Shown: positions 33,640-40,114, counted from the first letter of the stretch. The stretch: DNA of 64,000 nucleotides from an uncultured cyanobacterium (GCA_963706595.1 OY970166.1:4128001-4192000); one strand, 5' to 3'. A program made the numbers and translations. Notes: generated by a model not told the origin, from the letters alone.

Positions 33640-33852
33640 ATGGAAACTCGAGAAACTCGCCCTGCCACTGATTTACCACCAGTGGCTCTGGAATACAATG
33701 GTAGAGACCGCAATGCATTTATATTTGGCTTTAATCCTCAAGCCGAACTGTGGAATGGCCGCTTCGCAATGATTGGCTTTTTGGCTTACTTACTGTGGGA
33801 TTTAGCTGGATATAGCGTTCTGCGGGACGTGCTACATCTCATTGGTTATTAA
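33640..33852 (+). CDS. hli: High-light-inducible protein (CAB/ELIP/HLIP)
   Basis: AELWNGRFAMIGF motif. Confidence 0.93.
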   Translation: METRETRPATDLPPVALEYNGRDRNAFIFGFNPQAELWNGRFAMIGFLAYLLWDLAGYSVLRDVLHLIGY

Positions 33853-33893
33853 CGATTAAACATTCAATAATTAGTTTGATTTTGGAGTAAAAA

Positions 33894-34106
33894 ATGGAAA
33901 CTAGAGAAACTCGTCCTTCCAGTGATTTACCACCAGTTGCTAAAGCTTATAACGGTGTAGACCGTAACTCATTTCTGTTTGGTTTTAATCCTCAAGCCGA
34001 ACTGTGGAATGGTCGGCTAGCAATGATTGGCTTTTTGGCTTACTTACTGTGGGATTTAGCTGGATATAGTGTCTTACGGGACATACTCCACTTCATTAAA
34101 TATTAG
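33894..34106 (+). CDS. hli: High-light-inducible protein, tandem paralog
   Basis: AELWNGRLAMIGF motif; GGAG RBS. Confidence 0.93.
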   Translation: METRETRPSSDLPPVAKAYNGVDRNSFLFGFNPQAELWNGRLAMIGFLAYLLWDLAGYSVLRDILHFIKY

Positions 34107-34345: not shown

Positions 34346-34560
34346 TCAAAGAAGAAAACGCACCATTACATACAATGCTAAAGCCACCAGTTGCACAAGC
34401 ATGACTGGAATTCCATAACGGAGAAAAGTTTTAAAGGAAATGCGTCGTCCGTGTTGTTCAGCAATACCTGCGGCTACGATGTTAGAAGATGCTCCCACTA
34501 AAGTGCCATTTCCTCCCAAAGTCGCACCAAACATCATGGCATAAAACAGTGGTAGCACTA
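34346..34560 (-). pseudogene. C-terminal remnant of ArsB/NhaD (IT superfamily) transporter
   Basis: [18 protein letters not shown]...ISF..FLRYG motif; only the last ~70 aa remain. Confidence 0.85.
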
Positions 34561-34562
34561 AA

Positions 34563-34684
34563 TAGTGCATTAAACGTAGGTTGGGTTAAGCGCAGCGCAA
34601 CCCAACGCTGCCAATGATGTTGGGTTTCCTTACGTCAACCCAACCTACAATTTTTTGCAACATTTTAAGCTTGCCACGCCACTA
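34563..34684. repeat. REP-doublet-containing MITE-like element at the transporter deletion point
   Basis: GTAGGTTGGGTT doublet 34576..34648 plus TTGCAACATTTTAAGCTTGCCACGCCACTA end shared with 45876 and 58069 copies. Confidence 0.75.
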
Positions 34685-34746
34685 CATTGAGGTGACTTTT
34701 TGGCAATTTTAATGGGATGAAAAATTACTAGCATCCAGCCCAGTCT

Positions 34747-35397
34747 TTATTCATCAATACAATTGGGTATACCCAAAACGGCACAGGGAAAATTAGAACC
34801 TAGTATTTGGATTAGGGGATGATTAACAGATTTACATCCCAAAAATAAGATATTAGCAGTTTCCAATTCCACAACTTTTTTAAGTTCTGTAGCAACGCAA
34901 CCAAACCGCAGATGAGATTTAAAATCACCCTGCCATTCTTCAGCTAGGCTTCGTGCTTGCCAAAGAATTCTGTCCGCTTCTTGGACAGGAGTAATGGTTT
35001 TTTCTGCTAAAAATTGGGTGATTCCTCTTAATTTGGATTGAGTTAAGACCGGGATATCTGACTTTGATACTGCACTTACTGAACACTCTAAAGTCGGCAG
35101 AGTTTTTGTACAACTCAACACATCTGTAACCTGATTATAATCATGATTTTCTACCACATAAACGGCTTGCACGTTCACTGGTGCATTTGTAGCTAAACGC
35201 GTTTGGTGGGCAATGCAGAAGGCTAAATCGAGTGCAGTATGACTATTAGGCGAAGCATCATAAGCAACGATTAAGTTAACAGCTTGAACTTCTGGAGAAA
35301 AAGGTTTTTTTGGCTCTGGTAATAATACCATTTGCTCAATTAAGTCATCTCGACCGATGGCGCTTTGCAAACGCACTAACATGGGCTTTATTTTCAC
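34747..35397 (-). CDS. Universal stress protein (USP) domain protein
   Basis: LIVAYDASPNS..ALDLA, VQAVYV, LRFG, ILFLG, CAVLGI. Confidence 0.75.
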   Translation of the reverse strand: MKIKPMLVRLQSAIGRDDLIEQMVLLPEPKKPFSPEVQAVNLIVAYDASPNSHTALDLAFCIAHQTRLATNAPVNVQAVYVVENHDYNQVTDVLSCTKTLPTLECSVSAVSKSDIPVLTQSKLRGITQFLAEKTITPVQEADRILWQARSLAEEWQGDFKSHLRFGCVATELKKVVELETANILFLGCKSVNHPLIQILGSNFPCAVLGIPNCIDE

Positions 35398-35539
35398 AAT
35401 TTGAACTTCTCCCCAAAGAAACGCATGGTGAATGAGAAGTAGGTTAAAAACGGATAACCCCTATCCCAGAGGATAAACAAGTCATATCCGCAAAGAAACC
35501 CCAATAACAACTGGTGTTAAAGCCAAAGTTTTGGGAGTT

Positions 35540-35619
35540 CCTTCCATTGCCGACGGAGTTAGCTGACGGGCTAAGACTGGAAGGTGTCTCTCGTTAAGAT
35601 TAGCCCCAAACATTGGTTC
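35540..35619 (-). ncRNA. c-di-AMP (ydaO/yuaA-type) riboswitch, 3' part
   Basis: Minus strand GAACCAATGTTTGGGGCTAATC...CCTTCCAGTCTTAGCCCGTCAGCTAACTCCGTCGGCAATGGAAGG fits the family hallmarks (GGAACC, TGGGG, CCCGTCAGCTAAC); upstream of USP/transporter genes. Confidence 0.88.
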
Positions 35620-35621
35620 CT

Positions 35622-36887
35622 GCTATATAACACCTAGACAAGTCTAGACATTATTTAACGTTTCACAGGGTAGCGTCGGCGCAATTAACCCTCCACGTTC
35701 AGACACGGGTAAGCCCTCCGTGTTTCTTGCGTAATTATTTAAGTTGATCGCCGCATTTAAATCACGATCTAAGCTATGTCCACAATTCGCACAGTTAAAT
35801 GTCCTTTCTTTTAAAGGCATTTCTTGTTTGTGTCCACAATTAGAGCAAGTTTTGCTGGATGGATACCAACGGTCAACAACTACTAACTTAGATCCAAACT
35901 TAGTGCATTTATATTCTAACTGTCTTCTAAACTCATAAAAACTAGCATCGGAAATAGCACCAGCTAATTTGTGATTAGACAACATACCCTGAACATTTAA
36001 ATTTTCAATAGCTACAACTGCGTGGTTTTTGCAAATATGTGTTGTAGCTTTGTGGGTATTATCTAACCTAATGTCAGATACACGTTTGTGAGTTTTTGCA
36101 ATTAAGTTTTTCTGCTTTCTATACCTGTGAGATGCTTTCTCTTTGCGTTGTAGTTTTCTTTGCCGTCTTGCTAGTAACTTTTTAGCTTTTCTGTAAGCCT
36201 TTGGGTTTTCAATTACAACGCCAGTAGACAGCGTAGCTAAGGCTTTGATTCCCAAGTCAACACCTACAGATGGGTAGGATTTGACATTTGACTCTGTAAC
36301 TACATCATAAGTGAAAGCTATGTACCAATCACCAGCACCCTTACTAATAGTTATTGATTTGCAAGTAGTATGTGGCAGAAATTCATAAGTTTTTACCCAG
36401 CCAATCGTAGGTAATTTTATTGATTTACCGCCTACATGAATAGGTTTGCCACTGGCATCTATAGTAAAACTATCGTTGACATCTTTTTTCTTGAATCTTG
36501 GGTAATCACCTCTTTTCTCAAAAAAGTTTTTAAATGCTTTGCCAAGATTGTCAAAAGCATATTGAGTAATTTTTTGACAAATACCTTTTTCTTTAATCCA
36601 GGATAGTGCTGTCTTTACCTGGTTATTAAAGAACTTTTTCAAAATGAAGTGATTGGGTTTAAACCCATCTTGATACAATGCTGTCCAGGTAGCTAAACCC
36701 CAATTGTAGGTAAACCTGGATATACCCGCGTGTTTACTCATTGATTGCTTTTGGGCATCCGTAAGATTGAGTTTAGTTTTCCTGGATAGCAGCATTGTTC
36801 GACCTCAATTACTGATATATTCGGATTTTACACTTTTGTACATAGATGTAGATTAATGTCTAGTTTATTGAGGTCTAGTAGTAAGCT
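35622..36887 (-). mobile_element. Non-autonomous IS607-like element carrying only tnpB
   Basis: Boundaries defined by riboswitch reconstruction; AG dinucleotide at both junctions; CTAGAC motifs near both ends; no TIRs and no tnpA. Confidence 0.8.
35644..36795 (-). CDS. tnpB: RNA-guided endonuclease TnpB
   Basis: RuvC-I VGVDLG, RuvC-II AIENL, RuvC-III DRDLNAAIN, zinc finger CSNCG/CANCG; GAGG RBS. Confidence 0.95.
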   Translation of the reverse strand: MLLSRKTKLNLTDAQKQSMSKHAGISRFTYNWGLATWTALYQDGFKPNHFILKKFFNNQVKTALSWIKEKGICQKITQYAFDNLGKAFKNFFEKRGDYPRFKKKDVNDSFTIDASGKPIHVGGKSIKLPTIGWVKTYEFLPHTTCKSITISKGAGDWYIAFTYDVVTESNVKSYPSVGVDLGIKALATLSTGVVIENPKAYRKAKKLLARRQRKLQRKEKASHRYRKQKNLIAKTHKRVSDIRLDNTHKATTHICKNHAVVAIENLNVQGMLSNHKLAGAISDASFYEFRRQLEYKCTKFGSKLVVVDRWYPSSKTCSNCGHKQEMPLKERTFNCANCGHSLDRDLNAAINLNNYARNTEGLPVSERGGLIAPTLPCETLNNV

Positions 36888-36925
36888 CCGTTCCAAATCC
36901 AGTTTTGATGAATTTGAATTAGGCT
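36886..36925 (-). ncRNA. c-di-AMP riboswitch, displaced 5' part
   Basis: Minus strand ...AATTCATCAAAACTGGATTTGGAACGGAG; ACGGAG is complementary to CTCCGT at 35553..35558. Confidence 0.75.
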
Positions 36926-37040
36926 ACCCACTAAATAAATAATAGTCTAATTTAACACTAATTTCGTTGATTTGTACTAGACTCGCTAAAATCATTGTAT
37001 ATGTAAGTTTACTCATCTACTCCAGACGCACTTTAAAATA

Positions 37041-38228
37041 ATGGATTTTAGTCTTTTCCTGGCTGAAAATACTGAGATTATTCTCAAAAAATGGGTTGCC
37101 GCAGTTCTTAAAGATAGAAAAATTGAAAGTGCTGAAGACTTACCTTATACAGCAATCCAAAATGACCTTCCAGATGTGTTAGAAGCAATGGTAACAGTGC
37201 TTTCTAAGTCTCAGGGTAGTGATATTCAGTCTATAGTTACGGCTAGTTGGCATCATGGAATACTTCGGGCTAAACAAGGTTTTGATCCAGCCGAAATTAC
37301 TCATGAATACCATTTACTAAGAATGGTAATCTTTGATACTCTTGAAGCTGAGTTATTGAAGGGAAGTCCTTCAGAAATTATCCGTTCTATGCGTTTAATT
37401 GATGCTGTGATCGACGAAGCGATCGCTCAGTGTGTTAATAGTTATATTGAAGAACGCTTACAGGAATTTAAGCAGTTGTATTCGTCATTAGTGCTGCATA
37501 ATCAGCAACTCAATCGCTTAGTGATCGCCAATCAAGATCATATTTCTCAACTCGCCCATGATCTCAAACATCCTTTAAGTTCAATTATTGGGTACTCAGA
37601 TTTATTTTTACGCCAACAACGAAAAAAGCCAGAACTAAAAGACAACTACGCCAATATTGAACATATTGAGCGCGTGCTACGCAATGGGAGACAATTACTC
37701 CGTTTAATTAACGATGTCCTCGAAATTTCGCGGTTTGATGCCGGACAAACAAAACTTCATCCAGCATTGATTAATGTCCGTGAGTTAATCGACAATGTGT
37801 GTGAGATGTTGCAGCCTTTAGCTGACGAAAAAAAATTACCAATGGTGGTCGATTACGATAGTATCCCTCAACAAGTAGTCACAGATGAATTTCAATTACA
37901 ACAGATTATAATCAATCTGGTGAGTAATGCGATTCGATATACAGAGTCTGGGACTATTAGCATCCAATGCCACTTACTGGATAATAATCAGTGGTCGATT
38001 GCAGTTTCCGATACAGGAATTGGCATTACGCCAGAAAACCAAATTCAAATCTTTCAACCCTACTTTCGCGCTAATTCGGGTAATCGGTCTTATCTTCCTG
38101 ATAGTACTGGGTTAGGATTAGCAATAGTATCGCGTTTGGTAAAATTATTACAAGGTAAAATTGATGTAGTTTCCGAAGTAGAAGTAGGTTCTACTTTTAC
38201 AGTAACTATGCCTTTAGAATTGGAATAG
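37041..38228 (+). CDS. Histidine kinase with RsbRD-N-like N-terminal domain
   Basis: HG..R..QGFD..EI..EY; LAHDLKHPL, NLVSNAIRY, DTGIG, GLGLAIV. Confidence 0.92.
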   Translation: MDFSLFLAENTEIILKKWVAAVLKDRKIESAEDLPYTAIQNDLPDVLEAMVTVLSKSQGSDIQSIVTASWHHGILRAKQGFDPAEITHEYHLLRMVIFDTLEAELLKGSPSEIIRSMRLIDAVIDEAIAQCVNSYIEERLQEFKQLYSSLVLHNQQLNRLVIANQDHISQLAHDLKHPLSSIIGYSDLFLRQQRKKPELKDNYANIEHIERVLRNGRQLLRLINDVLEISRFDAGQTKLHPALINVRELIDNVCEMLQPLADEKKLPMVVDYDSIPQQVVTDEFQLQQIIINLVSNAIRYTESGTISIQCHLLDNNQWSIAVSDTGIGITPENQIQIFQPYFRANSGNRSYLPDSTGLGLAIVSRLVKLLQGKIDVVSEVEVGSTFTVTMPLELE

Positions 38229-38479: not shown

Positions 38480-40114
38480 ATGCTAGAAAGTTTGATCTTA
38501 ATCTTGCTGATCGGCTTTTTTGTGGGACAAATTGCCCGACGGCTGAAAGCCCCTGCACTAGTAGGCATGGTTTTGGTGGGAATTATACTGGGACCTCAAG
38601 TTGCTGACCTAATCAGCCCTGATGTACTGGCAGCGTCTGCTCCTTTGCGAACGATCGCTGTCATGGTAATTTTGATGAAGGCAGGCTTAGGTTTAGACCG
38701 GGAAAAACTGGTACAACAAGGAACAGTAGCACTGCGATTAGGGTTTCTGCCTGCGGCGTGTGAAGCCCTATGTATTGCCTTCGCTGCCATCTGGATTTTT
38801 AAATTCGACTTTGCCACCGGGCTATTGCTAGGTTGTATCATTGGCGCAGAGTCACCGGCGGTGATTGTACCGGGAATGCTGCGACTAAAAAGTTTGGGTT
38901 GGGGAGTTCAAAAGGGGATACCTGATGCCATCCTCACTGGTAGTGCGTTGTCAGATGTATTACTACTGCTATTATTTAGTTTGTTATTGAACTTTTTAGC
39001 ACAAGGACCAACTGCCACAATCACCTTGCCTTTAGGTTTCACCCTGAGTGCAGTTCAAATTCTGCCTCTTCAAATTATTTGCCAAATTGTTTTGGGAATC
39101 GGACTGGGTTTAGTGACCGCAAGGCTTTTGGTGTTGTTGCTGACGCAGCAGAACTGGACTCAAAATGCAGTTCAAGATAGCCTAGTTGCAGCCAGTTTAG
39201 CGTTGTTGCTAGTAGTAATGGCAGAAAAATTACCCTTCTTCTCTGGCTATTTGGCAGTAATGGCAACAGGATTTTTCTTGATTGAGTTGGATGCTCCTTT
39301 AGCACGACGGTTGCGTTCTGGCTTCGATAGCCTGTGGACTATAGCAGAAATCGTTTTATTTGTGTTGTTAGGGGCAAGTATTCAATTACAAGTGTTAGAA
39401 AAAACGCTGCTCCCAGGATTGGTAATTCTGGCAATGGGGACGTTGATCGGACGCGCTCTGGGATGGTATTTATCTACATTAGGGAGTAACTGGAATTGGC
39501 GGGAGCGAATGTTTTTGCTGCCAGGGAATTCGGCTAAAGCAACCGTTCAAGCCGCAATCGGGGCGATTCCCTTAGCAGAGGGAATTCCGGGTGGTGAGAC
39601 AATTCTGGCGATCGCAGCTTTATCTATCCTCGTCACAGCCCCCTTGGGAGCTTGGGCTATTCCCACTTTTGCACCAAAATTGCTAGAGCGGGGCGAGGTT
39701 GATCCCACAAAGGTGGCGATCGCTCGGCGGATTCTCATCCTAGCTGCTGTTGATACCTCCCCTCTAGCTCGTCAGGTATTAACTAAAGCGGCTGAACTTG
39801 CCCGTCGTAGTGATGCCGAAGTGATTGTATTACATATCATTTGCAGCAACGATCCTCAAGAAGTAGAGGATCTGCGACAAAAAACTCAACGACTTTTAGC
39901 AGACATCCGCCATCAGTTCATTGCTATTACAGGCTCAATTCCAGAGGAAATTATCCGTGTGGCTCAGGACTATCAAGTTGCTGATCTTGTCATGGGTAAG
40001 CGAGGACATCAATCTTGGCATCAAGTTCTTGTGGGTTCTGTCTCCCAGGCAGTATTGGCATCCAGCCCGATTCCTGTGATTTTAGTTGAGGATGATCGTA
40101 TTAGGACTGACTAA
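38480..40114 (+). CDS. Cation:proton antiporter with C-terminal USP domain
   Basis: KAGLGLD, SPAVIVP, KATVQAAIG; C-terminal AAVD...VMGKRG...LVGSVS. Confidence 0.9.
   Translation: MLESLILILLIGFFVGQIARRLKAPALVGMVLVGIILGPQVADLISPDVLAASAPLRTIAVMVILMKAGLGLDREKLVQQGTVALRLGFLPAACEALCIAFAAIWIFKFDFATGLLLGCIIGAESPAVIVPGMLRLKSLGWGVQKGIPDAILTGSALSDVLLLLLFSLLLNFLAQGPTATITLPLGFTLSAVQILPLQIICQIVLGIGLGLVTARLLVLLLTQQNWTQNAVQDSLVAASLALLLVVMAEKLPFFSGYLAVMATGFFLIELDAPLARRLRSGFDSLWTIAEIVLFVLLGASIQLQVLEKTLLPGLVILAMGTLIGRALGWYLSTLGSNWNWRERMFLLPGNSAKATVQAAIGAIPLAEGIPGGETILAIAALSILVTAPLGAWAIPTFAPKLLERGEVDPTKVAIARRILILAAVDTSPLARQVLTKAAELARRSDAEVIVLHIICSNDPQEVEDLRQKTQRLLADIRHQFIAITGSIPEEIIRVAQDYQVADLVMGKRGHQSWHQVLVGSVSQAVLASSPIPVILVEDDRIRTD

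Follow-up and report, generated by a model that had tools for sequence, protein, structure and literature searches.

In the 64,000-nucleotide stretch of DNA from an uncultured cyanobacterium analysed here (hereafter, the window), the aptamer of a c-di-AMP riboswitch (ydaO/yuaA leader, Rfam RF00379) is divided by a 1266-bp mobile element that encodes TnpB, with both halves of the aptamer left unchanged. Empty sites in four related genomes prove this anatomy, down to the dinucleotide at which the two halves of the aptamer abut when the element is missing. Most likely, in our view, the case represents ordinary insertional inactivation of a riboswitch within a dispensable, decaying usp-permease operon, and that no regulatory device is involved. 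The interrupted aptamer is the sole RF00379 match in its genome (G000), which also contains a gene with a diadenylate cyclase (DAC) domain; the one c-di-AMP riboswitch known from this strain is thus lost, whereas the cyclase has been kept.

This case alone does not reveal a new mechanism. Its value is that of a clean and well-resolved natural example of an IS607-type insertion: since the element has entered a conserved, structured RNA, its junction is verifiable at single-base resolution. The core (AG) and the target motif (RGAG) can both be read from it; it offers a TnpB guide RNA predicted to be set to the core sequence of a riboswitch, and it illustrates how standard annotation loses a riboswitch that has been cut in two. 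A literature search that covered titles and the beginnings of abstracts found no published case of a riboswitch aptamer interrupted by an insertion sequence. PMC8546581, considered as a possible precedent, was rejected: the available part of that report concerns point changes, with no insertion in an aptamer.

An aptamer divided at an AG dinucleotide

Direct reading of the minus strand places ACGGAG at 36891..36886, with CTTACT next, whereas the other end of the element reads ...TATAGCAG, its final AG (35621..35620) being followed by GAACC. The spacing from AG to AG is 1266 bp, and CTCCGT, which complements ACGGAG, occupies 35558..35553. An earlier note on this DNA, made from the sequence alone, had listed these motifs, the AG junctions and the spacing, and each of its statements proved correct on re-reading. 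The 5′ half of the aptamer (Table 1) contains the 5′ strand of P1, a hairpin with the arms AAAUUC/GGAUUU and, as the 5′ side of a 6-bp helix, ACGGAG. This half ends in AG (36887..36886), the core dinucleotide shared by both junctions. The 3′ half holds the CTCCGT that pairs with ACGGAG of the 5′ half. The insertion point falls after model position 35 of RF00379, in a junction strand and outside the helix strands.

Table 1. Coordinates of the aptamer, the inserted element and the surrounding operon in the window
Feature	Position	Strand	Basis
c-di-AMP aptamer, 5′ half	36886..36935	-	RF00379 model positions ~1-35; identical to L037:1501-1550, part of a 58.3-bit match
c-di-AMP aptamer, 3′ half	35536..35619	-	partial RF00379 match; 84/84 identical to L037, L038 and L039
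tnpB-only IS607-type element, 1266 bp	35620..36885	-	missing from the empty sites L037-L040; second copy with the same ends; skipped in an X2 contig
Left end	36796..36885	-	two direct ACTAGAC motifs (36879..36873, 36864..36858); direct reading
Promoter-like site in left end	36852..36825	-	consensus scan, 9/12 match
tnpB, 383 aa	35644..36795	-	Pfam PF01385 (OrfB_IS605), PF07282 (Cas12f1-like_TNB), PF12323 (HTH_OrfB_IS605)
Right end with omega-RNA-like scaffold	35620..35754	-	alignment of 15 right ends; terminus ...TATAGCAG
Right-end stem-loop	35723..35703	-	predicted scaffold
Right-end outer stem	35699..35695 with 35661..35657	-	5 bp
Right-end terminal hairpin	35647..35644 with 35637..35634	-	predicted scaffold
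Predicted omega-RNA guide	35600..35619	-	equals the start (~16-20 nt) of the 3′ aptamer half; inferred from IS607 TnpB biology
Terminator-like hairpin with U run	35446..35466	-	orthologous site in G003 called by scan; the window's version uncalled but identical to that of G001
usp-like gene, 216 aa, intact, first gene after the riboswitch	34747..35397	-	Pfam Usp 25.1 bits against a cut-off of 24; equal ORF length in G003
Multi-copy repeat, ~125 bp	34560..34685	-	>40 BLAST matches across G000; occupies the place of the 5′ part of the permease gene
ArsB/CitMHS-type permease remnant, C-terminal 74 aa	34346..34570	-	Pfam CitMHS 30.3 bits, below the cut-off of 31.9
Upstream length difference, stretch missing in the window	36957..36960	.	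220 bp (G003) to 330 bp (G006)

At Rfam gathering scores (38 bits for RF00379; Infernal), a scan of the window returned a tRNA as its sole match and RF00379 was absent. A permissive scan of 35300..37100 placed RF00379 at 35536..35650 on the minus strand with 36.2 bits (E = 2.4e-6), so that the aptamer as it stands falls short of the gathering score. The 3′ two thirds of this match are well aligned, and the initial ~35 model positions are forced onto sequence of the element, with non-standard pairs.

The intact counterparts of this aptamer present a different picture. RF00379 was found in 28 of 41 genomes, the window's own included, and exceeded the cut-off in 27. The comparison of flanks took in 40 of the 42 loci, the window's own two being left out, and located the empty site in L037 (genome G003), L038 (G006), L039 (G001) and L040 (G011). 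In L037, L039 and L040, the left flank runs up to position 1550 and the right flank takes over at 1551, the corresponding positions in L038, which lies in the other orientation, being 1585 and 1584; the empty sites hold a single AG, with no further base between the flanks. Thus, the earlier note's claim that the aptamer is split exactly at the AG junction holds, and the empty locus in relatives, which it had singled out as a check, displays the predicted junction with the flanks directly abutted. Unlike the window's aptamer, which is interrupted and below the cut-off, the orthologues reach 57–58 bits (58.3 in each of L037, L038 and L039, 57.3 in L040). In their alignment and minimum free energy folds, ACGGAG and CUCCGU form 6 standard pairs with GAACC directly after, and the core helix and conserved junction of RF00379 (gCGgGG-GAaCC ... 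CCuCGc) are in register; in the window, 1266 nt intervene between the same two helix strands. When the window's flanks (50 nt + 84 nt) are joined by script, the product is identical at 134/134 positions to the aptamers of L037, L038 and L039, a junction match far beyond chance. Given this identity with orthologues that were scored, the joined sequence has 58.3 bits, against 36.2 bits for the interrupted one.

An empty site was also recovered from metagenomic data. The best public sequencing runs contain at most 0.34 of the sampled window words. A 621-nt contig from run X2 skips exactly from 35619 to 36886 (1266 bp), with 2 bases common to both sides. This contig differs from the window at 9 positions and therefore comes from a relative, so that it is no evidence of excision in this strain. 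The joint that skips 1266 bp was found in none of the other three runs examined. A pattern that couples the right end with the aptamer core gave 0 matches in genome contigs and 0 in metagenome contigs of two large collections, from which records of the window's own genome may be excluded.

The inserted element, its family and its nuclease

Apart from an ambiguity of 2 bp created by the AG, which makes 35622..36887 an equally possible placement, the element is sharply bounded. It has one long ORF, tnpB, on the minus strand, and no gene for a serine-recombinase TnpA, in agreement with the earlier description of a tnpB-only element lying in the sense of the riboswitch leader. The left end is 90 nt long, and the right end has two GTCTAG motifs; TAGAC motifs occur twice per end both in this element and in a TnpA-bearing relative discussed below. 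There is no target duplication, and the same 2-bp AG core is present at both junctions. In two full copies, AG is found at either junction, and it precedes the left end in 4/4 left junctions. Across related genomes, these 4/4 left junctions end in RGAG, and the placeable right ends (16, with L050 left out of the junction counts) all end in GCAG, exactly after which the similarity among copies stops and unrelated flanks follow.

The second copy, at 3556963-3558409 of the window's own genome, is 96% identical and has the same ends, ...TAGAG standing before CTTACT on one side and ...TATAGCAG before unrelated DNA on the other. It carries ~180 bp of extra sequence in its left end (L002:1310-1500, at about 3557016-3557196 of the genome) that is absent from the window's copy; the X2 and X3 contigs break at the place of this stretch (36833/36835), whose reverse strand, by eye, holds a short ORF of ~37 codons. 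A regular-expression search of the genome returned 14 sites, 10 of them with the full right-end motif.

Among five resolvase-domain matches in the genome is a 216-aa ORF (1675835-1676485) that constitutes an IS607 transposase, scoring 208 bits with NF033518 (cut-off 110) over model positions 2-186 of 187. The TnpA of this family is a serine recombinase that combines a MerR-like N-terminus with a resolvase domain. The element to which it belongs spans 1675.7-1677.0 kb and continues, right behind tnpA, with a tnpB whose start is 77% identical to that of the window and which is internally deleted. Its left junction is AG before CTATCC, and its right end, GTCTAG...GTCTA...TATATAGCAG, is built in the same way as that of the window's element. 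Because the ends, junctions and motifs match those of the family and of this TnpA-bearing relative, we conclude that the window's element is a tnpA-less derivative of an AG-core IS607-type element. The IS607-type assignment implied in the earlier note is thus sustained by AG at both junctions, the lack of a target duplication, the repeated subterminal motifs and the TnpA-bearing relative. Two observations count against it, namely, that, of the NCBIfam models, IS200/IS605 gives the window's TnpB 295 bits (cut-off 425) and IS607 238 bits, each value being below the respective cut-off, and that the genome harbors six Y1 transposase genes. Elements of the IS200/IS605 family are characterized by a Y1 (HUH) TnpA, by subterminal hairpins and by insertion 3′ of a 4-5-nt site. 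By coordinates, none of these six Y1_Tnp genes is near any copy of the window's element.

Two further kinds of element were seen in the same genome. A miniature element at 5399860 (L012:1485-1734), flanked by ...AAAG and GAACGG, consists of ~16 nt from a left end of the TnpA-bearing type, fused to ~50 nt of right end. Another IS607-type element is present in two copies (4648133-4649777 and 1019743-1021387), both of which encode a 197-aa TnpA (163 bits with NF033518) followed by a long, overlapping ORF.

The available text of PMC6188088 characterizes IS607 as exchanging DNA over an identical dinucleotide, without inverted repeats or duplication of the target, and as carrying short motifs that recur within its ends. 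The window's element resembles CboIStron, as described in the accessible part of bioRxiv 10.1101/2023.11.20.567912, and the Helicobacter pylori IS607 of PMC6188088, again in its available portion, in lacking both terminal inverted repeats and a target duplication, and in having the same 2-bp core at its two junctions, repeated end motifs and a scarless donor joint, as well as a right end that differs from the target motif at −3 and a guide located just beyond the right end. By contrast, its core is AG with the motif RGAG, against GG with TGGG in the portion of those accounts available to us; the window's copy lacks tnpA and a group I intron; its host is a cyanobacterium; and its TnpB scores slightly better with the IS200/IS605 model. 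No match to a group I intron was obtained in 35300..37100 at E values up to 10, and the element is therefore no IStron.

The product of tnpB is apparently an intact RNA-guided nuclease, judging from its sequence. It matches the NCBIfam model of guided TnpB, NF040570, with 294 bits (cut-off 100), and has conserved, relative to ISDra2 TnpB, two CxxC pairs and the motifs GVDLGIK, AIENL and DRDLNAA, which we take to hold the catalytic residues. Residues 12-374 align with ISDra2 TnpB structures (E = 4e-53). The ISDra2 protein (IS200/IS605; PDB 8EXA, 8BF8, 8H1J) is the closest natural relative with a solved structure, the RuvC motifs and zinc-finger cysteines being aligned between the two; ISDra2 is mobilized as single-stranded DNA by a Y1 transposase, whereas the related full element in the window's genome carries a serine recombinase.

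Upstream of its terminal GCAG, the right end is predicted to fold into the elements listed in Table 1. The 250-nt alignment of right ends is poor in its upstream part, and a 135-nt version was used instead; in these final 135 nt of 15 right ends, 5 of the 14 predicted pairs stay paired through two-sided changes. In 14 of the 15, the outer 5-bp stem persists, with five different sequence pairs (10 rows by script and 4 rows, of the window's type, by direct reading). A structure with such compensatory changes fits an omega-RNA scaffold that would end at GCAG. According to the available text of bioRxiv 10.1101/2023.11.20.567912, the guide of IS607 elements begins just past the right end, the TAM is the target motif of the transposase, and the right end of CboIStron differs from the TAM at −3 (TGGG vs TCGG), which prevents self-cutting. 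By analogy, the target of the guide in the window would be intact aptamer DNA preceded by a TAM-like GGAG. The difference between RGAG and GCAG follows the same logic of discrimination at −3 as in CboIStron.

A decaying operon and the fate of the riboswitch

In G003, an intact leader is followed by the 216-aa usp-like gene and a 445-aa permease ORF, and the permease has the same full length in G006. In the window, ~1.15 kb of the permease region is missing and only the C-terminal remnant is left. The multi-copy repeat that occupies the place of the permease 5′ part has internal inverted arms of the GGGTTG/CAACCC type. On the other side of the aptamer, the window is without a 220-bp stretch that is present in G003 and G001 and, in a longer form, in G006, and that in G003 includes the best promoter-like site (10/12, a consensus match only). 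Either the window has lost this stretch or the three congeners have gained it; in the outgroup, G011, a different gene lies upstream. In G011, which belongs to another genus, the orthologous aptamer (L040:1250-1500) begins ~20 nt after the stop codon of this gene, so that the leader promoter there must lie inside or before the gene.

The terminator-like hairpin is probably the expression platform; the minimum free energy folds yielded no clear terminator/anti-terminator pair. We also considered decay of this terminator in the window and rejected it, the difference in the stem from G003 being common to G001 and hence ordinary variation. Searches for usp-leader DNA in five congeners found none in G002, G004, G005 and G008, and in the fifth, G007, matched just 48 nt that belong to an unrelated aptamer. 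The usp-permease locus, not found in 4 of the 5 congeners tested, is dispensable in the genus.

We therefore favor ordinary inactivation by the following route. A non-autonomous IS607-type element, made up of a left end, tnpB and a right end with its omega-RNA, would have entered the genome's only c-di-AMP aptamer at AG, through serine-recombinase exchange at that dinucleotide. The insertion separates ACGGAG from its partner CUCCGU by 1266 nt and, with the strands of the core helix that far apart, the sensor can presumably no longer fold as the leader is made. As its guide, the omega-RNA produced from the right end would carry the ~16–20 nt with which the 3′ aptamer half begins, and TnpB would cut any restored empty site (GGAG followed by the target), driving re-copying of the element and stabilizing the insertion, as published work on IS607 and IS605 suggests. 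Loss of the permease adds at least one further, irreversible lesion to the operon. Some points count against this route. The aptamer halves are identical to those of the relatives and usp is intact, so that the insertion may be recent and restoration of the aptamer is physically possible; and a TnpA that is possibly active is available in trans.

The main rival, which we regard as unlikely, is a rewiring of usp expression, in which a promoter of the element and read-through past its right end would drive usp independently of c-di-AMP, and altered or constitutive expression would be what has been retained. The orientation of tnpB and usp in the same sense, the promoter-like site in the left end, the intact state of usp and the shortening of the native upstream region all agree with such a scenario. 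However, a terminator-like hairpin remains in place ahead of usp, downstream of the aptamer, and the left-end promoter is only a consensus match, at 9 of 12 positions. The RNA contigs of X14 are uninformative here: they cover 35620..36651 and then run into unlike sequence at 35620, and thus come from copies at other loci.

The earlier note had proposed a reversible genetic switch, in which TnpA acting in trans would excise the element without a scar and restore c-di-AMP control, re-insertion or TnpB homing would turn it off again, and the locus would be phase-variable. Part of this proposal stands. Scarless excision by TnpA in trans that restores the aptamer is mechanistically possible, because the genome encodes a full-length, 216-aa IS607 TnpA in an element with closely similar ends, excision would recreate the exact aptamer, given that AG is the core at either end and nothing is duplicated, and the computed join is the aptamer of the relatives; moreover, IS607 excision is described as scarless and efficient in the available part of bioRxiv 10.1101/2023.11.20.567912. 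The regulatory switch itself is unsupported, and we judge it highly improbable. The operon that it would control has lost its permease gene (445 to 74 aa) and possibly, with the 220 bp missing upstream, its promoter region; the genus can do without the locus; no recurrence of the junction was seen in the two large collections; the only empty-site contig, with its 9 differences, belongs to a relative; and TnpB homing counteracts loss of the element, the biology of TnpB favoring, according to the same partly available source (bioRxiv 10.1101/2023.11.20.567912), its re-installation. Even less probable, in our estimate, is a working on/off switch in which TnpA of the sister element excises the insertion in a fraction of the chromosome copies, TnpB, guided by the conserved aptamer core, cuts restored copies and re-installs it, and the riboswitch state depends on how the two enzymes balance; if true, c-di-AMP sensing for usp would be restored in the excised chromosome copies.

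That the sensor still works, its halves reassembling across 1266 nt on a long transcript or the insert being spliced out as in IStrons, is hardly credible: the insert does lie in a junction strand and breaks no helix strand, and IStrons of the IS607 family do splice, as stated in the available parts of bioRxiv 10.1101/2023.11.20.567912 and PMC13521648, but no group I intron was matched in 35300..37100, the left end offers just 90 nt, tnpB would be translated inside the insert, and the 3′ half alone folds no better than shuffled sequences (z = −1.05).

At 38480..40114, the window has a gene for a 544-aa fusion of a Na+/H+ exchanger with Usp, in the place of which G003 and G006 have different DNA, with a 338-aa ORF in G003. 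At 33640..34106 there are two tandem 70-aa genes with near-identical products, conserved in G003 and G006, which presumably encode high-light-inducible (CAB/HLIP-type) proteins.
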